A stretch of DNA of 64,000 bases, taken from an uncultured Ignavibacteria bacterium. GTDB lineage: Bacteria > Zixibacteria > MSB-5A5 > RBG-16-43-9. The stretch spans positions 135,427 through 199,426 of the forward strand of contig CAZEDM010000005.1 in NCBI GenBank assembly GCA_964511075.1, read 5' to 3'. How positions within the stretch are numbered: position 1 is the first letter of the stretch; every line of letters starts with the position of its first letter. Both the position numbers and the translations under genes were made by a program. Positions 4,656-64,000 of this stretch are shown one piece after another. Below the pieces are notes generated by a model that saw nothing but the letters and a program-made list of their open reading frames with translations, did not search any database and had not been told where the DNA came from.

Positions 4656-6053
4656 ATGGACCTTTTTGAGAAGGAAAAAGATAAGAGAATAAGCGATAAT
4701 CCGCCTCGCAGGGAGGAAACTCCCTTAGCTGACCGGATGAGGCCCAGGAACTTTGAGGAGTTTGTGGGACAGAAGCATATTCTCTCCCCAGGAAGCGTTT
4801 TAAGAAATGCCATCGAAAAAGGGGAGCTTCAGTCCCTCATCTTCTGGGGACCTCCGGGAACAGGCAAGACCACTTTGGCCTTTATCATAGCCAATTATAC
4901 CGGCGCAGATTTCAAAGCTTATTCTGCAGTTACCTCCGGGATAAAGGAGATCAAGGAGATCATAGCCTCTGCCACCAGACAGAAGAAGCTCTATAACCGG
5001 AAAACGATTCTATTCGTGGATGAAATCCACAGATTCAACAAAGCCCAGCAGGATGCCTTTTTACCCCACGTGGAAAAGGGAAACATAATCTTAATCGGCG
5101 CTACCACTGAAAACCCATCCTTTGAGGTGATCTCCGCCCTGCTCTCCAGAACCAAAGTTTATACCCTGAATCCCTTATCCGAACCAGAATTAAAACAGAT
5201 AATCGATGCTGCCTTAAAAGACAAGGAAAGAGGTCTGGGTAATTTCAAGATAACCTTAGAGGACAAAGCCAAAGATTTCATCTATCAGATGGCAAACGGC
5301 GATGCCCGGGTTGCCCTGTCCACCCTGGAGTTTGCTGTTATGACTACCTCTCCGGATGAAAAAGGGATAAGAAACATAAACTTACGGATAGCCCAGGAGG
5401 CTATGCAGAAGAAGGCTTTGGTATATGATAAGGCAGGAGAGGAGCATTATAATATAATCTCCGCATTACATAAAAGTTTAAGAGGCTCGGATGTGGATGC
5501 AGCCCTGTACTGGCTGGGAAGGATGCTTGCCGGCGGAGAGGATCCGCTTTACATCGCCAGAAGGTTAATCCGCTTTGCCACAGAGGACATCGGAAATGCA
5601 GACCCCCAGGCTTTGCAGGTAGCAATCGCCGCAAAAGAGGCATATCACTTTCTGGGAACGCCTGAAGGAGAGCTTGCCTTAGCCCAGACAGTTGTATATC
5701 TTGCCACAGCTCCCAAAAGCAATTCCATATATAAAGCCTTTGGAAAAGTGCAGAAGGAGATCCAGGAGACCCAGGCTTTACCTGTGCCCTTGCACATCCG
5801 AAATCCGGTCACCAAACTGATGAAGGAGCTGGATTACGGCAAGGATTACAAATACCCGCATGACCACCCGTATCATTTTGTGGATGAGGAGTACCTGCCG
5901 GATAATCTGAAAGGGAGAAGATATTATCACCCCACGGATTTCGGCTTCGAGAAAGAGATCAAGAAGAGAATGGAGTGGTGGCAGAAGAAAAAAGAAGAAC
6001 TGAGAAAAGGTAAGGAGAAAAACAAATCTAATAATTCGCAAAAGCAGAAATAA
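4656..6053 (+). CDS. rarA: replication-associated recombination protein A (AAA+ ATPase, MgsA/WRNIP1 family)
   Basis: [15 protein letters not shown], Walker [10 protein letters not shown], Walker [10 protein letters not shown], plus a Lys-rich C-terminal tail. Confidence 0.9.
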
Positions 6054-56837: not shown

Positions 56838-59213
56838 TTATTTATACTTAACCTCACAGAGTACCGAATTAAATGGATTGAAAACTATCCCCTTTGGAGA
56901 AACAGGAACTTTGGGCAATTTTATTTCCGTGTATGGTTTATCTATCAGCACCTTGACAATAGAGTACTTATCCTCCCCGAAATTCAACACCACCGGCACT
57001 ACCATTTTAAAACCCTCTGAGACATTCTCCTGCTTAACCTTAAGATTCACCACGAATTTCCCGTCCTGTGTCTGCTCTTTTTCCCAGGAGACAGTATAAG
57101 TCGGGATTTCGATGCCGTAGACCCACTGGTCGAAAAACCAGCCCATATCCTCCCCGAAATGTTTATCCACAATCTTTTTAAAATCCTCCGTTGATGCCTC
57201 CTTGAGATAATATGTGTTGACGAAATCCTGCAGCATCTGCACAAATTTTCCATCATCCATGGTTTTGAAATCCATCATCATATTTCTAAGCATATGAATG
57301 ACATAGGCCCCTTTCTGATAAACCAAGATATCGAAGTCCAGCGATTCGGAGGAGTCCAGCCTGTATCCCAGCCACAGAGGCCCGGCTTTTGTGCCTTTGA
57401 TTTTGAAACCTCCTTTGCCCAAGATATTATCCTTCCAGTGCTCGATTATGTTGAAAAATGTCTTGTTATCCTTGAAATACATCTGGGTATACCAGGCACC
57501 GGAATAGGTAGCCAGCCCCTCGCTTAACCACTGGTCATGATAGGTCTTCCATCCCACAATATGCCCCCACCACTGATGAGAGACCTCGTGTGCCCTGAAA
57601 TACTCGGTTGCCCCCTGGACCTCATTCTGGAAAGTCACCCAGGAAAGATGCAAAAGCCCGGGGAATCCCTGGCCATAAGCAGCAGGTATCTCTGCAACCG
57701 ATATCTTTGGGAAAGGGCATTTCCCAAATAAGTTCTGGAAGAAATTAAGACTGTTAACCACATCCGCGCCTATGTTCTCCTTGATATGCTTATCCTGAGC
57801 CATCAGATCCATATCCGGGTAAATGAGGGAGAGGCGGTTATAATCGGAGGTGAACTGCCTATGACTTTCTGCTACATGATAGATCGAGACGTCTGGAAGT
57901 CCCTCGTTCTTCAAATCCAGGACCTCAAAGCTCCCTAAGTTGAAAGAGACCAAGGCTACCGGTATATCCTCGACCCAGCGGGTAAGCAGAAAATCTTTTT
58001 CCATTTTCTCCTTTACTTTTTCTCCTATGGAGATGAACTTGTAACCCTTTGGGCTTCTGAAGGTAAGGTCGAAGGTTGACCTCTGGTTATACCCATACTG
58101 AGGATACCAGAAACTTGAATACTCCAGATAAAAGTCCCCGTAAATATTCTTACTCATAACGTCTCCGGAGTAAGTAAAAATTAATTTTTCCTTCTGACCG
58201 TCTATTGAGGGAGTGTTCAGTATAACACCTACCTCTGCAAAGCCTTTCTCCTGTATGAACGAAAGCTCTTTTCCGGAACTATCCTTTACCTGGCTAACCT
58301 CGAGCTTCTCAGCCATATCGAAGCTCAAGACCCTCACCCCGCTTTTAAGAAAAGTTAAATCTACTTCGCAATCTGAAGTAATCTTACCGGAAGTAGATAT
58401 CATCACTTCCATTCTGTAATGTTCGATCTCTATCTCATTTATCTCCTCCTCTTTGGGGGCAGGCTCAGACTCAAAAGAGCAAACCAGATCAACCCCTTTA
58501 GGAAAAGCAGGGGATATTCCGGTTTTGAACTCCTGCATAAGTTTAACCTGCTCAATATCTTTTGGGTCATACAAAAAGAAAAGGGTGCTGCCTGAACGGG
58601 GTGATATCTCTGCCCAGAAAAATCCTTCTCCTTCTTCCTGCACTAAGTCTGACAATATCCTTGTCTCGTGATTGAAAATAAGGTCTGGATTGAAATAAAG
58701 CTCCTCTTTGATTTTTTTCCTGCCTGAATTGAAAATATCTTTAGCCTTACCAGGTATATCCCCCTCTTCAAAGTTCAATCCAGAAAGTTCCTCATCGGTC
58801 GAATCGGAAAACCTCAGATATAGCTTGTCGAATTCCGTTTTAAGAGCAGAAGATTTGGTGAATTTCTCGAGTTGATATTTCTCTATATCCGTAGGAGGAG
58901 AAAACTCAAAGACCCCTTCACCTATAAAAACCGCACCGGTGATTTTGCCAGAAACAGGCTTGGCAAGATAAATTTCACCCTTTTTTAAATGGAAGGTAGC
59001 GACATCCCTTTTTAAAACAAGATCTTCGACCTTTGCTGTTTTAGTATTGTCCAGCTCGAGTGATTTTAACTGGTCATAAAGTCCTGATATCTCAGTGCCT
59101 GAAAGCTCTGCTCTGCTCTGAGCAAAAGAGGCCCGGCTTAGAAGTGCTACTGTCAGAAACACCAAATAAAAACTGATGAATCTTATCTGGAATGTTCGTG
59201 AAGACAACCTCAC
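56838..59213 (-). CDS. secreted M1-family zinc metallopeptidase (aminopeptidase N-like)
   Basis: Signal peptide and gluzincin motif HEVSHQWWG...(18)...WLSEGLATY. Confidence 0.8.
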   Translation of the reverse strand: MRLSSRTFQIRFISFYLVFLTVALLSRASFAQSRAELSGTEISGLYDQLKSLELDNTKTAKVEDLVLKRDVATFHLKKGEIYLAKPVSGKITGAVFIGEGVFEFSPPTDIEKYQLEKFTKSSALKTEFDKLYLRFSDSTDEELSGLNFEEGDIPGKAKDIFNSGRKKIKEELYFNPDLIFNHETRILSDLVQEEGEGFFWAEISPRSGSTLFFLYDPKDIEQVKLMQEFKTGISPAFPKGVDLVCSFESEPAPKEEEINEIEIEHYRMEVMISTSGKITSDCEVDLTFLKSGVRVLSFDMAEKLEVSQVKDSSGKELSFIQEKGFAEVGVILNTPSIDGQKEKLIFTYSGDVMSKNIYGDFYLEYSSFWYPQYGYNQRSTFDLTFRSPKGYKFISIGEKVKEKMEKDFLLTRWVEDIPVALVSFNLGSFEVLDLKNEGLPDVSIYHVAESHRQFTSDYNRLSLIYPDMDLMAQDKHIKENIGADVVNSLNFFQNLFGKCPFPKISVAEIPAAYGQGFPGLLHLSWVTFQNEVQGATEYFRAHEVSHQWWGHIVGWKTYHDQWLSEGLATYSGAWYTQMYFKDNKTFFNIIEHWKDNILGKGGFKIKGTKAGPLWLGYRLDSSESLDFDILVYQKGAYVIHMLRNMMMDFKTMDDGKFVQMLQDFVNTYYLKEASTEDFKKIVDKHFGEDMGWFFDQWVYGIEIPTYTVSWEKEQTQDGKFVVNLKVKQENVSEGFKMVVPVVLNFGEDKYSIVKVLIDKPYTEIKLPKVPVSPKGIVFNPFNSVLCEVKYK

Positions 59214-59235
59214 CTACTCCTGCGTTTGAGTTTTT

Positions 59236-59715
59236 TCAGAGGCTCTTGAAAACCGTCTCCACATGCGGCTGGAAACCCATCTTTCTCCAGAATGCTTTTG
59301 CTGTCTCGTTTAAGACGGCAACCCGAAGCTCGATGCGATGCACTCCCCGTTCCGCAAACCACGACTCGGCATTTTTGTACATCTTCTCGCCTATCCCTGC
59401 CCGGCGGCACCTTTGAGTAACTGCCAGATCATATACGCTTCCGTAGTCCCGGTTCTCGAATACCGGCGGATATTTTGCCAGCATTGCCAGGCAGTACCCC
59501 ACCAAAACACCTTCTTTTTCCGCCACCAGAACCAGGGAGCCATCTTTTTCGAGATGGCACGCTATAAACTCCTTGAAGTGCTCGTGCCCATCTGCTGCCC
59601 GGGTAAAAATAGGGTCTCGTTCTTTGTGAAAGTCCATAAACTCCTGCCACAGAAGCCCGATGGACTCTAAGTCCTTTGCAGTTGCCTTGCATATAACCAA
59701 CTCTGATGTTTTCAT
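59236..59715 (-). CDS. GNAT family N-acetyltransferase
   Basis: QRCRRAGIGEKM acetyl-CoA binding motif in a roughly 160-aa protein. Confidence 0.7.
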   Translation of the reverse strand: MKTSELVICKATAKDLESIGLLWQEFMDFHKERDPIFTRAADGHEHFKEFIACHLEKDGSLVLVAEKEGVLVGYCLAMLAKYPPVFENRDYGSVYDLAVTQRCRRAGIGEKMYKNAESWFAERGVHRIELRVAVLNETAKAFWRKMGFQPHVETVFKSL

Positions 59716-59732
59716 TGAAATTTAGACTCCAT

Positions 59733-60263
59733 TTATACCGTTAACGGGATGCGCTTAATTGTCTGTACCGTATCATTCTCATATTTCGCCACGTCAAGCG
59801 CAGAGATGCACCCAGCTATGGCAAATTCCTCCCTGTTCCAGGTTTCAATCATCTCCAGGCACTTCAGAGGGTCTTTTGAGTTCCCAACCCCCATATGCGG
59901 AACAAAGTCAACAAAGAGCGCCCGCTGTGGAAATAGTTTATCGGCATACAGTTTGTCGTGTAGCTTTACGATTTTGCTGTACCCCTCGTCCGGCACCAGA
60001 AAAGTGTGATAATTATCGTTGAAGGAATCTTTATTGAGGACGGCACAGCGCAGGCAGAACTTAAGTGCTTGAACGCCTTGGGCTTGCCTTTCGATTTCCG
60101 AGATAAAAGGCTCGGCTTCCCAGCCTTTGCGTATGGGAAATACCAGAGTAAAATGCGGCTCGACTATATGGTAATACAACTCGTCGTTATCTTTTCTGAA
60201 TTCCTGTATCCGCTCATAATCGCTTTTTTTGATTTCCGGATACGCAATCACTATCAGTGCCAT
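59733..60263 (-). CDS. hypothetical protein, possibly 2H-phosphoesterase-like (one canonical HxTx motif)
   Basis: PHFTLVF is canonical H-x-T-x. PHMGVG is a degenerate second motif. Weak assignment. Confidence 0.3.
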   Translation of the reverse strand: MALIVIAYPEIKKSDYERIQEFRKDNDELYYHIVEPHFTLVFPIRKGWEAEPFISEIERQAQGVQALKFCLRCAVLNKDSFNDNYHTFLVPDEGYSKIVKLHDKLYADKLFPQRALFVDFVPHMGVGNSKDPLKCLEMIETWNREEFAIAGCISALDVAKYENDTVQTIKRIPLTV

Positions 60264-60344
60264 AGCTATTACTCCCTATTATGAAAGCTGATTTGAAAAC
60301 TATCTTACATTTCCCTGCTTGGAGCTACTTTGGTTATTTTCCTC

Positions 60345-61049
60345 TCACATCTTCCTGCCAACTGCAATCAGGCGCCGACTTGACCGGCGAAATTTTTCGC
60401 CTTTGAAAGAGCCGTAGATTTTATCTATTATCAAGCCGGCTTGCTCGAACAACTTTTTTGTCTCCCCAAAGGTGTAGAGCCGCATAGAAGAGCTATTCTT
60501 AGGGTCGTTGCGCCCGTTGACGATCCTGCGGGAGATAATCTGCTTTGTATCCTTGTCCCAGTGGTTACGTACAATCACCTCACCGCGGCGTTTCTCAGGC
60601 ATGAAGTGCCGCAGGATATATTCGCGATAGACTTGATCGATCAGCAAACGACCGCCTGGACGTAGCGCGCGAGCATAACGCCGGAGGAGTTCGAAATTTT
60701 CCTCATCCGAAAAATAGCCGAAACTGCCTCCCCAGTTGAAAATCCCGTCGAACTCCTCTTCAAAATCCAGTTTGCGCAGGTCCATAACCCGGAATCTGCC
60801 GGATAAACCCTGAGTGCGAAATCTGCGACGTGCACGATTCACAAATTGCAAACGCAGGTCGATACCAGTGACAGAGAAGCCCTGATGTGCCAGATGAAAG
60901 GCAATACGCCCTGCCCCGCAAGGCGCATCCAGCACACTTTGCCCCTTGCTCAACCGCAAAGCTCTCTTGATGAACCGGGCCTCTTCTTCTCCCTCCTTAT
61001 CCGGAAGAAGCCAGAGAGACTCTTCCATTGTCTCAAACCAGTCTGGCAT
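60345..61049 (-). CDS. class I SAM-dependent methyltransferase
   Basis: VLDAPCGAGRIAFHLAHQGFSVTGIDL (motif I and post-I acidic residue). Confidence 0.75.
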   Translation of the reverse strand: MPDWFETMEESLWLLPDKEGEEEARFIKRALRLSKGQSVLDAPCGAGRIAFHLAHQGFSVTGIDLRLQFVNRARRRFRTQGLSGRFRVMDLRKLDFEEEFDGIFNWGGSFGYFSDEENFELLRRYARALRPGGRLLIDQVYREYILRHFMPEKRRGEVIVRNHWDKDTKQIISRRIVNGRNDPKNSSSMRLYTFGETKKLFEQAGLIIDKIYGSFKGEKFRRSSRRLIAVGRKM

Positions 61050-61176
61050 GATTCGGTTCCTATAGGGCAGATGAAATTGATAGTTTTTCTTTATTGATAA
61101 AACCTATAAGCTCTAACATTCGAATTAAGCGACTGGACTTGCGCAAAGCGCGAGAACGAGCCGCTTGAATAAGGTA

Positions 61177-61803
61177 TTATGAGTTTTTATTTTTTCGTTT
61201 GTCAATAATATTTAATAAATGCGTTGCTAACAACAGCATTTCAAATGTTTCCCTAAACTCAAGTTCAACATCTCTATGGCTGTGAGGATTTTTATATAAC
61301 CCTATAGTGCCACAAAAAAGGTCAGATATGGCTTGTCTTTCTGCTTTTGGAACGGAGGTGTCAGTTAAGGGACCCTTTTCAAGCTCAAAAGCCTTTCTCA
61401 TTAGCTGAACCCCTATTAAGTCAGAAGAAAAGCCACATGCTTTTCTTGCCTCTATTTCTACTGCCTTAAACGCTTTAAAAACAGCATCGGAGAATTCTGA
61501 GCGCTCTACATGTGGCAAACATTTTTTTATGATTATTTCATGGAATAGTAGAGAAGGGACTAAAGTCCACTTACCTATCAGACGTTGAAAATCTTCTTCT
61601 TTAAATTGGACTCCTTTTTGTGTAGGGTGGAGGATTTCTCCATCTTCACCCTGTTCTATTTGAAATAATCGTAAGTCAATAAAGGTATAGGGACTATCTT
61701 TATATTTTACTCTTGATAGTCGAATTCTCTCATATGATCTTCTTGAGATCTCGACAATAGTTTCTTGGAAAAGAATATTTGATTTTATGTTTTTTTTACT
61801 CAT
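61177..61803 (-). CDS. hypothetical protein with C-terminal TIGR02391/Hypoth_Ymh-like (HEPN-like, Abi-associated) domain
   Basis: C-terminal AVFKAFKAVEIEARKA...LMRKAFELEKGPL...LFCGTIGLYKNPHSHRDVE...LLLATHLL fits the remembered TIGR02391 consensus. N-terminal roughly 100 aa unassigned. Confidence 0.55.
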   Translation of the reverse strand: MSKKNIKSNILFQETIVEISRRSYERIRLSRVKYKDSPYTFIDLRLFQIEQGEDGEILHPTQKGVQFKEEDFQRLIGKWTLVPSLLFHEIIIKKCLPHVERSEFSDAVFKAFKAVEIEARKACGFSSDLIGVQLMRKAFELEKGPLTDTSVPKAERQAISDLFCGTIGLYKNPHSHRDVELEFRETFEMLLLATHLLNIIDKRKNKNS

Positions 61804-61811
61804 AACATAGG

Positions 61812-61860
61812 TTTATCTGTACTAATTATATTGCGCTTACTGTCTTTCTGGCCATAGAAA
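61812..61860 (-). repeat. copy A of a ~48-bp conserved element directly upstream of the Ymh-like gene
   Basis: GTTTATCTGTACTAATTATATTGCGCTTACTGTCTTTCTGGCCATAG versus copy B at 62815-62863: identical 16-mer TTATCTGTACTAATTA and about 80% identity overall. Confidence 0.7.
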
Positions 61861-61881
61861 CCTCACTTAACACGACTTTCC

Positions 61882-62052
61882 TCATAAGTCTTCAAAGAAC
61901 TTTTTGACTTCAGAAACTGACGTATCATTAGAAAAAGATTTCAACACTCTACCGTGGATACCATTCTCACGTACTTCAATCTCACCTGTATCGTGCTTGT
62001 AGGAGAGAGCGTACTTTTTTTCATCTGTGTGCATCCACAGCACGTTTTTCAT
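61882..62052 (-). CDS. unannotated small ORF (56 aa: MKNVLWMHTDEKKYALSYKHDTGEIEVRENGIHGRVLKSFSNDTSVSEVKKFFEDL) between the TIR and Ymh-like genes
   Basis: ATG at 62052 (minus) with GGGGAG 2-3 nt upstream. Same strand as the flanking defence genes. Below the ORF-track threshold. Confidence 0.4.
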   Translation of the reverse strand: MKNVLWMHTDEKKYALSYKHDTGEIEVRENGIHGRVLKSFSNDTSVSEVKKFFEDL

Positions 62053-62136
62053 TTCTCCCCTATGTTCCTTAACGAAAATTTGTTGACTTTTCCAGATAAT
62101 GGCACCTGCAATTGCGTGGTAGATATAACCCGCCGC

Positions 62137-62781
62137 CTATGGGTAATTAAGAATAGAATCAGCATTACAAACCGCACATCGAAATTTACCATATCGATGG
62201 ATTTTATAATTGGAGGAACACTTCCAACACTGCACATCGATTCCAAATGAAGGTTTAGACTTATTAAATAGAAGCAAACCCGCTAAACCAACTGCAAAAC
62301 CTGCTGCGGCTCCTTCACCCCTATCTCTCTCGTTCAATAGAGCTCCCCCCACTGTTGCAGCAGACAACGTGGGAACCACATGTGAATCATCATAGTTCTC
62401 GATTATTGAACGCAGATATTTACGCCATTCTTCAGTTTTTTCAAAAAGTACATAATGATTTAAGCGAGGGATGATGACTCTGATTTTACCTAAAGACTCG
62501 ACTGGTTCAAAGATCCAAATATATTTATTCTTAGCTGTACCGCATTCCCAGGTAATCCAATCTCTCGTATGTTTGAGATTTTCAACATTTTCACTTAGCA
62601 AAACAAAGACGGCGTTTGATGCCTGTATGTCTCGCTCAATTTTCTCAGCCGTCACACCGCTTGGTGGGTCTTTCTCCAATTCTTCAAGATGGGGCTTCAC
62701 TTTAGTTCCAGCGAATGCCTCCAAAAAGAAATGAATTATGTCTTTATCAATCTTGCTATGGGATATGAATACCTGTGCCAT
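62137..62781 (-). CDS. TIR-domain protein with predicted TM segment and C-terminal zinc ribbon
   Basis: N-terminal VFISHSKIDKD (TIR alpha-A/beta-A signature), DWITWE (W-x3-E, putative catalytic Glu), AAAGFAVGLAGLLLF hydrophobic helix, and C-terminal CWKC...(12)...CAVC. Confidence 0.65.
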   Translation of the reverse strand: MAQVFISHSKIDKDIIHFFLEAFAGTKVKPHLEELEKDPPSGVTAEKIERDIQASNAVFVLLSENVENLKHTRDWITWECGTAKNKYIWIFEPVESLGKIRVIIPRLNHYVLFEKTEEWRKYLRSIIENYDDSHVVPTLSAATVGGALLNERDRGEGAAAGFAVGLAGLLLFNKSKPSFGIDVQCWKCSSNYKIHRYGKFRCAVCNADSILNYP

Positions 62782-62814
62782 TATTTGCCCTTCCTTAAGA
62801 CAAGTAATCTAAAA

Positions 62815-62863
62815 TAGTTTTATCTGTACTAATTAAATCGCTATCACTGCCTTTCTAGACCAT
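62815..62863 (-). repeat. copy B of the ~48-bp conserved element upstream of the TIR gene
   Basis: GTTTTATCTGTACTAATTAAATCGCTATCACTGCCTTTCTAGACCATG. Lies 30-80 nt upstream of the TIR start, which has an AAGGAAGGG RBS. Confidence 0.7.
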
Positions 62864-62926
62864 GCAGTAAAATTCACCGCTGGCATTTTTGCCGACCGCT
62901 GAAATGATTTTTCACTACCCTTATAT

Positions 62927-63538
62927 TTATGCTGCAAGTCCAATGATAATCAAAGGAACTGCGGGAACGCCGCGACCCTGCCTAACGACATTGTAGATTT
63001 CACCTTCATAATAGGGCACGCCGGAACTCATGTGTGATTGGAGAGATTTCATTGGTAGGATTTCAACACCGACGTCAATATAGTCGCCGACGTAGAAGGC
63101 AAGATGTTTTACGAAGAGGTCGTAGGCTACGAATGAATATTTACCGAACTGCACTTCAACGGCCACTCGGTCTTTGACAAAATCGGTCTGGTTGTAGCTA
63201 AAAATAGGCACTTCGCCTGCTGCCTCAATTTCTTTCTTCTGTGCCTCCGGTGTCATAGTAAGTGTCTTTCGAATCAGCTTTTCACTCTTAGTTACCCAAT
63301 AACTGACCCGACTCTCTTCCCAGCTCTTGGCACGCAGCAGTCTTTTAAAGTCAGCATTCATACCAACAGGACTATAAAGAATTTCACCCTTCATCGTTTT
63401 CTCTTTGGAAACTTTGGCCTTGAACTTTTCTGCATCCACGTTTTTAATGACGGATTGCACTTCTCGCCACAGACCGGGTTTGTGAACCAGAAGAAATTCG
63501 CGGCCATTTAGATGGGAATAGGTTTCTACAATTTTCAT
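62927..63538 (-). CDS. type II restriction endonuclease, BglII-like fold
   Basis: DFVKDRVAVEVQFG has D-x8-E-x-Q spacing identical to the BglII catalytic motif (D84/E93/Q95), in a roughly 200-aa protein. The ATG overlaps the upstream methyltransferase stop (ATGA). Confidence 0.6.
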   Translation of the reverse strand: MKIVETYSHLNGREFLLVHKPGLWREVQSVIKNVDAEKFKAKVSKEKTMKGEILYSPVGMNADFKRLLRAKSWEESRVSYWVTKSEKLIRKTLTMTPEAQKKEIEAAGEVPIFSYNQTDFVKDRVAVEVQFGKYSFVAYDLFVKHLAFYVGDYIDVGVEILPMKSLQSHMSSGVPYYEGEIYNVVRQGRGVPAVPLIIIGLAA

Positions 63539-64000
63539 CTTGTCTGGTATCTAATCTTCCTCTCTTTAATTAACAAGATTTGCTTCGAGTTTTCGGAATT
63601 GACCCAGGGGGCTGAAGTTAGCTTATTACCCGCTTCAATTGGATCATACACAGGTTTGTCCATTGGCCGGGTTTTCAAAGTTCCAATGAGTTCTTGCTGT
63701 ATTCTGTTTTTGGCCAATTCAATGTACTTGGGAACTATCTCTGCACCTGCCCCACGGCGATTATGACGAATAGCGGCAATGATTGAACTACCTGTACCAA
63801 GAAAGGGATCTAAAACCCAATCCCCTTCATTTGTCATTGCAAGAACGAGGCGCTCTATCAGTTCCACAGGGAATTGACAGGGATGTTCAGTTTTTTCAAC
63901 ATGGTTACTCTTTACATTAGGAATAACCCATAAATCTCCCGGGTTTTTACCCAGAGGATTGCAAGAGTATTTTCCGGCATTTGGTCCTTTAAAATGTTTT
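63535..64000 (-). CDS. DNA methyltransferase, beta-class N4-cytosine/N6-adenine (C-terminal part; N-terminus beyond the window end)
   Basis: HPCQFPVELIERLVLAMTNEGDWVLDPFLGTGSS matches the conserved HP..KP.eL...li......VLDPF.GSGTT block of N4/N6 methylases. The ORF is open to the window edge. Confidence 0.75.
   Translation of the reverse strand, partial: KHFKGPNAGKYSCNPLGKNPGDLWVIPNVKSNHVEKTEHPCQFPVELIERLVLAMTNEGDWVLDPFLGTGSSIIAAIRHNRRGAGAEIVPKYIELAKNRIQQELIGTLKTRPMDKPVYDPIEAGNKLTSAPWVNSENSKQILLIKERKIRYQTR

Follow-up and report, generated by a model that had tools for sequence, protein, structure and literature searches.

Why should one short repeat stand ahead of each of two neighbouring defence genes? 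The question is raised by a 64,000-nt stretch of DNA (contig CAZEDM010000005.1, positions 135,427 to 199,426 of the forward strand; hereafter the window), in which a gene encoding a TIR protein and a gene of the Hypoth_Ymh/TIGR02391 family, referred to here as Ymh, are each preceded by a copy of the same element. The MnmG protein encoded on this contig is 69–84% identical to proteins named 'candidate division Zixibacteria', and the window is therefore assigned to a Zixibacteria lineage. The explanation that best accounts for the repeat, with a probability of roughly 0.6, is that it is an attI-like docking and expression module that heads integron-type cassettes.

A repeat search places the two copies, which form a direct-repeat family of 47 nt, at 61803-61849 (copy B) and 62810-62856 (copy A). 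They lie on one strand, 1007 nt apart, and agree at 39 of 47 positions (83%), much as an earlier note on this DNA had described them (about 80% identity, same orientation, some 1 kb apart). The exact run shared by the copies, given there as a 16-mer, does exist and is one base longer, at 17 nt (TTTATCTGTACTAATTA on the plus strand). A degenerate 47-mer that fits both copies has two matches against 0.00 expected (100 shuffles), and the 16-mer with up to three mismatches has three against 0.68 expected, the third being unrelated; if one 1-nt indel is allowed, the likeness reaches about 60 nt. No third copy was found with a two-sequence nhmmer profile in the window together with an 8.8 kb extension (72.8 kb). 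All genes of the repeat region are carried on the minus strand. The source contig in gene orientation is numbered locus L001, with a window coordinate equal to 72782 minus the L001 coordinate, and the loci used for comparison carry numbers in the same series.

In gene orientation copy A reads ..ATGGTCTAGAAAGGCAGTGATAGCGATTTAATTAGTACAGATAAAACTATTTTAGATTACTTGTCTTAAGGAAGGGCAAATAATG and is followed by TIR, whilst copy B reads ..ATGGCCAGAAAGACAGTAAGCGCAATATAATTAGTACAGATAAACCTATGTTATGAGT and is followed by Ymh, whose ATG sits within GTTATGA. As a full feature, copy B covers about 69 nt (61802-61870, minus strand) between a 56-aa open reading frame (ORF) and the Ymh cassette and ends in ...ATTAGTACAGATAAACCTATG↓TTATGA, where the arrow marks the junction; copy A covers about 59 nt (62808-62866, minus strand) between R.BglII and the TIR cassette and ends in ...ATTAGTACAGATAAAACTATT↓TTAGAT. 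Copy B adjoins the Ymh ATG (61803-61801) and overlaps the mini-ORF ATG-TTA-TGA (61808-61800) to which the earlier note had drawn attention, and which turns out to be the conserved ATGTTA of the module joined to the TTATGA of the cassette. Ymh is without a Shine-Dalgarno (SD) sequence, again as described. Copy A ends 29 nt 5' of the TIR ATG (62781). The likeness between the copies ends exactly at the junctions T↓TTAGAT (TIR) and G↓TTATGA (Ymh). At junction B there is a core site, GTTATGA (61800-61806, minus strand), which holds the Ymh ATG and whose G↓TT forms the 5' boundary of the Ymh cassette; at junction A there is a core-like heptamer, TTTAGAT (62807-62813, minus strand), the probable 5' boundary of the TIR cassette, in which the G has been replaced by T.

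Ymh and TIR are regarded as cassette genes because homologues elsewhere carry attC sites. The Ymh gene (61177-61803, minus strand) encodes 208 aa that match TIGR02391 with an E-value of 3.4e-22, which upholds the original gene call. Its homologues, at 75–86% identity, are found in unrelated contexts, and those at L009, L011 and L016 all start with GTTATGA(c). At L009, which is a Cloacimonetes metagenome-assembled genome (MAG) with several attCs, and at L016 an attC begins at the Ymh stop codon; its R'' box, GTCATAAC, exactly complements the gene start GTTATGAC, and the site folds with a z-score of -3.0. This complementarity is the signature of an integron cassette bounded at G↓TTATGA. In the window the Ymh start GTTATGAGT is likewise complementary to an R''-like box, ACTCATAAT, that is the complement of TTATGAGT except for a change of AAC to AAT. 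The box belongs to an attC relic (61111-61183, minus strand) made up of the R''-like CTCATAAT with the stop codon, a hairpin AAGCGGCTCG..CCAGTCGCTT and an R' box GTTAGAG, and its fold is weak (z -0.67). From GTTAGAG onwards, the sequence 3' of Ymh is kept at a cassette start in the relative L176. A separate observation on the TIGR02391 cassettes is that the start codon lies within the R' core (G↓TTATGA) and the stop within R'' (TCATAAC), with no ribosome-binding site (RBS) of their own, and the recombination boxes thus double as translation signals. These boxes are at 61800-61806 and 61176-61183 (minus strand) in the window, at 5997-6003 and 6633-6640 in L009 and at 2093-2099 and 2727-2734 in L016.

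The TIR gene (62137-62781, minus strand; 214 aa) has its own SD, and the call made for it in the earlier note also stands, the protein being ThsB-like in PADLOC (E 2.4e-8) with a Pfam TIR_2 match of E 2e-4 that is below the Pfam cut-off. TIR homologues with 60–91% identity are single genes in unrelated contexts and occur in MAGs named as several different phyla. On the 3' side of the stop codon they share ..GGCGGGTTAyATC..CGCAATTTAAC AAGCG, and L003 retains a complete attC hairpin (z -3.96). The corresponding attC of the window (62053-62136, minus strand) is decayed: its first 27 nt are as in the homologues and a GTTAAGG core is present at 62067-62073, R'' has been lost (CACGCAATT↓gcagg), and the fold gives a z of 0.08. 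In L005 and L018 the DNA ahead of TIR is similar to that of the window only past junction A, from TTAGATTAC.. on, and in L018 the R'' of the TIR attC, ATCTAAC, complements GTTAGAT. On the evidence of the TIR and Ymh homologues, therefore, copies A and B cease to be alike exactly where two cassettes have their 5' boundaries. Between the two genes lies the 56-aa ORF (61882-62052, minus strand), which matches Pfam PF18315, 'integron cassette protein VCH_CASS14', with an E-value of 3.2e-11 over profile positions 49-93 of 97; with only about 25 nt from its stop to copy B, its own attC seems to be lost. The match is confined to the C-terminal half of PF18315, and the ORF may be a short or a truncated member of the family. 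As a further point on the TIR protein, its C-terminus carries, by eye, a Gly/Ala-rich membrane-like stretch and two CxxC pairs that could form a zinc ribbon. There is no ThsA partner nearby, so TIR may represent a defence cassette streamlined to a single gene.

The closest TIR orthologue, L015 (91% identity), has the module upstream and different flanking DNA, and an exact core of 19-20 nt common to A, B and L015 was used to retrieve further copies. This core pattern is present in more than 120 metagenome contigs or MAGs among the matches listed and in 36 genome loci, and yields 101 distinct copies whose identity to the consensus is 53% or more over the 30 nt left free by the search pattern. 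The pair of copies is not a duplication private to this locus. The genome matches come from WOR-3 MAGs, with several copies clustered per contig, and also from Ignavibacteria, Cloacimonadota, Stahlbacteria, Aminicenantia, Atribacterota and unclassified MAGs; a complete Zixibacteria chromosome (OY970208.1) carries three exact copies and one degenerate copy, all within 4 kb. Some retrieved matches are evidently due to chance, such as those in Niallia, Lachnospiraceae and SAR86, and among viral contigs there was one partial match to the module, which is probably also due to chance. A good copy (L165, 6911-7013, minus strand; nhmmer E 3.6e-16) occurs in a MAG labelled as a Thermoplasmatota archaeon and reflects either a binning error or inter-domain transfer.

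Against the family nhmmer profile, copy B is matched at 61870-61802 (model positions 81-150, E 2.4e-10) and copy A at 62843-62808 (E 3.6e-5), the two-sequence profile having matched copy A at 62866-62808; the L015 copy scores 1.7e-6 and is an A-type variant that sits upstream of the L015 TIR gene. Copies A, B and L015 align with common derived states, AGAAAGrCAGTrA in place of the consensus AGAAATAGCCGTAA, and are therefore one lineage variant of the module. It is very probable that the repeats of the window belong to the module family and that they are sited at cassette junctions, and both are short cores of a diverged, lineage-specific variant in which a short frame is broken. The idea that the module might be a general feature upstream of TIR and Ymh homologues was dropped: it is absent upstream of the TIR homologues L003, L004, L005 and L018 and the Ymh homologues L009, L011 and L016, and is found only at L015. 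With regard to L015 itself, the TIR gene (1164-1807) has an in-frame TGA about 24 codons in, so that it appears to be a pseudogene, and the module variant is retained upstream of it.

The family consensus, ...AAGGAGGTTTATATGGTTAGAAATAGCCGTAATTGTAATTTTATTAGTACAGATAAACCTAT↓GTTAGGC, has a fixed right end (...ATTAGTACAGATAAACCTAT↓GTTAG) and a variable left end, with conservation rising toward the junction. Variability is 0–0.2 across the last 45 nt or so, GTTAG is kept past the junction, and beyond this the value exceeds 0.5. The universal part is a core of about 65 nt that ends in ...GTAATTGTAATTTTATTAGTACAGATAAACCTAT↓GTTAGGC; the recurring unit is the last 65–70 nt, extended to about 300 nt in some copies. 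The junction coincides with the start of the next cassette and with the integrase crossover position, G↓TT. Core only is found in 54 of 95 copies. The rest add upstream blocks, namely two hairpins (H1 and H2) and an A/T-rich block with the consensus matches TTGCGA/TTGTAA-18-TAAAAT, and a further block is seen in five Zixibacteria-type copies. Within the core there are direct core-like heptamers, GTTAGAA (-56), ATTAGTA (-24) and GTTAGGC, the first of which is degenerate in the window copies. Four nucleotides before the last heptamer is CAGATAAAC, an inverted L-like box resembling in sequence a more AT-rich form of CAGGTGAGC, the L' box of attC; from the L' boxes of attCs in the same loci it differs by purine transitions only. 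The family consensus, ...CCTAT↓GTTAGGC, holds the R box expected of an attI site, with the G↓TT crossover directly 5' of the cassettes, represented in the window by GTTATGA (B) and TTTAGAT (A). No attC-like fold is found in the core (-4.9 kcal/mol, z -1.5), nor in the window copies relative to shuffles (z +1.25 and +0.11), and the only fold of the core is AGGTTTAT/ATAAACCT.

Most copies of the module also carry apparent translation signals. A short ORF (MVRNSRNCNFISTDKPML...) with an SD and an ATG 30 nt before ATTAGT is present in 66 of the 101 copies and runs across the junction. Variability by codon position (0.18/0.22/0.16) bears no coding signature, and in none of A, B and L015 is the frame intact; the constraint is therefore on DNA or RNA and not on a peptide, and MVRNSRNCNFISTDKPML was set aside as a leader or arrest peptide on the same grounds. 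ATTAGTACAGA and TAAA are retained in A, B and L015 despite the broken frame, although in L015 a 1-nt insertion splits them. A sigma-70-like TGGCCA-18-TATAAT lies within copy B (61825-61854, minus strand; a 10/12 consensus match only), whereas copy A has a weak promoter match only. As an aside, in a subfamily of nine loci (L020, L048, L074, L083, L087, L095, L127, L128 and L134) the short frame runs into a conserved protein of about 350 aa with an N-terminal hydrophobic segment (MIRNSYNFISTDKPISDARNIIFVKFVCLF...), which may be a module-fused gene or may have its true start internally.

The genes found 3' of the module are mutually unrelated and include a catalase, a glycosyltransferase, AsnA, a CBS protein, Fic, a PIN-like protein and many unknowns. 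For 18 of 94 copies the first 8 nt past the junction recur as a reverse complement (R'') 250–2300 nt downstream, compared with 3.6 ± 1.7 in controls and a maximum of 9 in 200 trials. Ten of these cases were inspected and most are textbook attCs, such as GCCTAAC-AAACA-...-GTTAGGC in L041 and those of L143, L094, L025, L169 and L111. L161 is a plain cassette array in which the module is an ORF-less unit that follows a complete attC, with the next cassette beginning at the junction; the start of its CBS cassette, GTTAGGATT, exactly complements its own R'', AATCCTAAC. Separately, about 985 nt 3' of the module in L088 there is an attC-like site ending in ..CTCAGATAAACTTAC↓GTTAGACC, and the L-like box and core of the module thus also occur inside an otherwise unrelated site.

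In the attI-like docking and expression reading, the core would act as a double-stranded attI-like site at which an integron integrase whose gene lies elsewhere in the genome would join or exchange cassettes, and the module would lend expression signals to otherwise promoterless cassettes. The short frame, with its strong SD and an ATG that reads across the junction, may supply the translation start; upstream of it, the longer forms would bring hairpins and sigma-70-like hexamers in addition. In the window, copy B may drive the SD-less Ymh through TGGCCA-18-TATAAT and through the overlap of ATG-TTA-TGA with the ATG, which would couple translation. The two halves of this proposal are not equally firm. 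For the recombination role of the core, the odds appear to be about even, whereas a role of the module in expression within this window is tentative, and somewhat more doubtful than not.

In attI1, ORF-11 is a short frame with its own SD that crosses the junction and can assist translation of cassettes that have no RBS; the short frame of the module resembles it in having an SD and in reading across the junction. The attI1 site itself is 65 bp long, with an L box, an R box GTTRRRY, a pair of upstream direct repeats (DR1, DR2), and crossover at the G (PMC12901181). The module is similar in being a non-hairpin, presumably double-stranded site of about 65 bp with a G↓TT crossover position just 5' of a cassette and, by sequence resemblance, an inverted L-like box and upstream direct core-like repeats. 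It differs in that no intI is adjacent in any locus examined, that several copies occur per genome and per locus, and that its sequence is conserved across MAGs of several phyla, whilst known attI sites are class-specific. Sites derived from attI are functional inside arrays, and Delta-attI-type cassettes of mobile, clinical integrons carry truncated copies of attI1 or attI2 at the 3' end of resistance cassettes (PMC12901181). These are attI-derived boundary sites inside arrays and away from intI, as the module would be; the module, however, heads its cassettes and is found in environmental candidate phyla.

A number of points weigh against the attI-like reading. A true attI normally adjoins intI, so that a defining feature of attI is lacking here: intI was not adjacent in about 150 loci, the divergent upstream ORFs are not integrases, and a phmmer search with one query detected no tyrosine recombinase among 414 ORFs of at least 230 aa from loci L003-L174, a search of limited sensitivity made on the fetched flanks. 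Some downstream genes have no attC, for example the catalase in the Zixibacteria locus L173, and the upstream gene is usually not a cassette gene (GlnS, secretin, DEAD helicase, Ldh). Copies that directly follow an attC are a minority in the crude attC scans (L161, two in L139, and L145), and since our own attC scanners are crude and noisy, negatives on upstream attCs are only indicative. Five locus groups have one module+gene unit behind differing upstream DNA, with module pieces that differ in length, and the opposite pattern, a shared upstream region with differing downstream DNA, is seen in one pair only; these swaps suit a leader that travels with the cassette no less well than a docking site that stays in place. 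The promoter and SD statements are consensus matches alone, and a Zixibacteria-type 'promoter' read by eye, TTGCAT-17-TATCTT, was discarded as it fails the scan criteria. Finally, because retrieval relied on an exact core, conservation within that core is circular, copy numbers and taxonomic spread carry a bias, and every count is a lower bound.

In the main rival explanation the core of about 58 nt is itself a mobile, ORF-less mini-cassette, running from G↓TTTATA... to ...CCTATG↓ and carrying promoter and RBS signals. Its recombination site would be a hairpin-less palindrome formed on circularisation (ATAAAC-CTAT-GTTTAT), and an integrase would insert it ahead of other cassettes, like the promoter cassettes of Vibrio superintegrons. 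In L161 and L139 the unit is flanked by a complete attC R' (G↓TTATCT, G↓TTAAAG or G↓TTATAC) on one side and the next cassette's G↓TT on the other, and L145 too has cassette boundaries on both sides of it. Its first bases, TTATCTG or TTTATA, complement CAGATAA(A)C near the 3' end, as a cassette start does its own R'', the core folds only as AGGTTTAT/ATAAACCT, and module+gene units stand behind differing upstream DNA. What tells against it is that there is no attC with L boxes or extrahelical bases, so that the unit fails the structural definition of a cassette, and that most copies follow non-cassette genes (GlnS, secretin, DEAD helicase, Ldh) and have left boundaries that vary widely. The gene-less units of Vibrio are treated here as ordinary cassettes, each with an attC, in line with how a cassette is generally defined. 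The module resembles the Vibrionaceae promoter cassettes as a sense-oriented, ORF-less unit in arrays that is proposed to switch on the next cassette, and differs from them in having no attC, in forming one conserved sequence family and in that its promoter activity is only predicted. That gene-less cassettes with sense promoters exist in Vibrionaceae superintegrons, and switch on downstream cassettes in Vibrio, is documented by Blanco et al. 2024 (PMC11014356). The mini-cassette explanation on its own is considered unlikely; the data do not separate it from the attI-like reading, and both may hold.

A cis-regulatory role is less probable still. The earlier note had offered, as one of two readings, a promoter or operator shared by both genes and answering to one regulator. 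In general form this would make the module a 17–25 nt operator or promoter-proximal site for one regulator, or an attenuator in the 5' untranslated region or with a leader peptide. The conserved stretch overlaps and follows the -10-like hexamer in copy B, most copies have the SD and short ORF, and the hairpins H1 and H2 are conserved upstream in the long forms. Against this, the genes behind the module are functionally unrelated (catalase, glycosyltransferase, AsnA, CBS, Fic, TIR and Ymh), the ORF has no codon-position signature and is broken in the window copies, and the RNA folds of these copies are no better than shuffles (z +1.25 and +0.11) and have no match in Rfam. Moreover, the sharp end at G↓TT and the downstream R'' complementarity are not expected of an operator. 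The shared promoter is plausible only for the Ymh copy, A being a poor promoter match, and is thus weakly supported; nothing points to a common regulator, and the TATAAT of B is a derived change and not a feature of the family. An RNA element in general was rejected, as the folds of both the window copies and the intergenic regions are no better than those of shuffles and nothing relevant is present in Rfam. There, no match above E ~1 was obtained on the window copies or the long form, with an E-value threshold for the island and long form and the gathering threshold for ten family loci.

It is very improbable that the copies represent attC sites belonging to the cassettes before them, specific to the species and alike in the manner of Vibrio cholerae repeats: they do lie between consecutive cassette ORFs, end in a GTTRRRY-like core and have a box before that core (CAGATAAAC) similar to CAGGTGAGC, the L' box of attCs in these loci, but they have neither an R'' (RYYYAAC) partner nor an L'' box, their DNA and RNA folds are insignificant, and in L161 and L139 a complete canonical attC is present upstream of the module as well. 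A strict attC scan found nothing in L001. Just as improbable is a 5'-truncated remnant, or miniature inverted-repeat transposable element (MITE), derived from an insertion sequence or a group II intron with attC cores as its target, in the style of IS1111-attC or group IIC-attC elements; the fixed right and variable left ends, the insertion exactly at GTT core sites and a conserved left-end motif shared by the L161 units would fit it, but the ORFs tested near copies include no transposase, reverse transcriptase or DEDD recombinase, there is no match to a group II intron or other Rfam family and no insertion-sequence-type terminal inverted repeat, and the module is oriented as the cassettes are, whereas IIC-attC introns lie antisense to them. 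A dif/Xer-like site and a LexA box were considered by eye only and dropped, with mismatched half-sites and a locus near oriC. The earlier note had treated occurrence at unrelated loci as the mark of another repetitive extragenic palindromic (REP) family. That holds to the letter, as the family precedes many unrelated genes in many genomes, but not in meaning, because the copies sit specifically at cassette junctions and are not scattered as REPs are. The module is like a REP or MITE in being a short intergenic repeat with several copies per genome, and unlike one in that it is bound to cassette junctions, clustered, cross-phylum and of fixed orientation to the downstream gene; a dispersed repeat was also rejected because only two copies are found in 72.8 kb, those of the Zixibacteria chromosome are clustered within 4 kb, and none is palindromic. 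Taken together, the operator, attC, REP and insertion-sequence or intron readings fit the data poorly.

The second reading of the earlier note, that the copies are the direct-repeat boundaries of an inserted cassette holding TIR and the 56-aa ORF, comes close, in that it places them at cassette boundaries. They are not, however, the two ends of one TIR+56-aa insert, nor an attL/attR pair or a target duplication; each is a separate module copy that heads the next cassette. The single-copy empty site that was to be looked for in genomes without the TIR cassette was not found: in the close relatives L176-L178, which lack TIR/Ymh, the syntenic locus has no copy of the module, and there is therefore no such site.

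If the attI-like reading is taken further, the module would be a new component of integrons, a portable, integrase-less 'docking and expression adaptor' that combines a hairpin-less attI-like site with its own translation start, is served in trans by an integrase with its gene elsewhere, and has spread across phyla. This extension is speculative and rather unlikely to be correct as a whole. It would cover Zixibacteria, WOR-3, Ignavibacteria, Cloacimonadota, Stahlbacteria and others, with the long forms adding a promoter, and would give a chromosome many separate points of cassette capture and expression. Were it true, expression of the TIR and Ymh cassettes outside the classical Pc-attI platform would be explained. 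The attI sites and the expression of distal or orphan cassettes are poorly known outside a few integron classes, and standard tools annotate only intI and attC. A searchable marker of cassette starts of about 65 nt, present in several little-studied phyla, would help to find cassettes, and cassette-borne defence genes, in metagenomes. With such an element it could be tested directly whether dispersed attI-like sites serve integron integrases in trans, and it would suggest how promoterless cassettes, such as those of the ThsB-like TIR and the TIGR02391 gene, get switched on.

The contig continues beyond the window and has the gene order dnaN, dnaA, then rpmH, rnpA, yidC and mnmE, then an island, then mnmG, rsmG, parA and parB. 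Within the island are three hypothetical genes, a BglII-like restriction-modification pair (methylase and endonuclease), copy A, TIR, the 56-aa ORF, copy B and Ymh, followed by an S-adenosylmethionine (SAM) methyltransferase, a 2'-5' RNA ligase, a GNAT protein and an M1 peptidase. It is a few kb from dnaA-dnaN and so is probably next to oriC. As a variable region it spans about 56838-64000 of the window (L001 6550-15950), between mnmE and the M1 peptidase or mnmG, with a counterpart at 1-9900 in L176. The relatives L176-L178, whose MnmG is 85% identical, have different accessory genes upstream of the M1 peptidase, with canonical attC sites and no repeat. No gene of Phage_integrase type was found among the called genes within 10 kb on either side, nor among ten window ORFs of 300–410 aa. 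The stretch from mnmE to the M1 peptidase or mnmG thus reads, from its sequence, as a partly decayed cassette array with no integrase nearby, in which the window's own attCs have lost R'' (TIR) or carry AAT for AAC in it (Ymh), and what looked like a 'defence island' next to oriC can be recast as a decaying cassette array. In the terms of IntegronFinder, clusters of attC sites without an integron integrase are called CALIN and single such sites SALIN. Like a CALIN, the island and many related loci consist of co-oriented cassettes and attC sites with no integrase nearby; the definition of a CALIN includes no conserved head element, and the attCs of the window are partly decayed.

A few minor features of these loci can be added. 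In L176 there are two decayed 5' fragments of the window's SAM-methyltransferase gene (at about 1950 and 3245). At the syntenic Zixibacteria loci L173 and L036, intergenic DNA holds other repeated blocks, for example AGTAGCAGTAGGTCGGGCTGTTGAAAACTGCCCGAC hairpins and CCTGACCTGACGGAAAAATTT, and in L036 an inverted-repeat block of about 90 nt occurs twice with 99% identity, which suggests that intergenic DNA is heavily reused, block by block, in this lineage. Directly upstream of copy A in the window are the BglII-like type II restriction endonuclease (PADLOC E 1e-95) and an N6/N4 methylase, at 62927-63538 and 63535-64000 (minus strand), and 3' of the endonuclease stop there is a hairpin-rich stretch of 70 nt that could be a non-canonical attC or a terminator.

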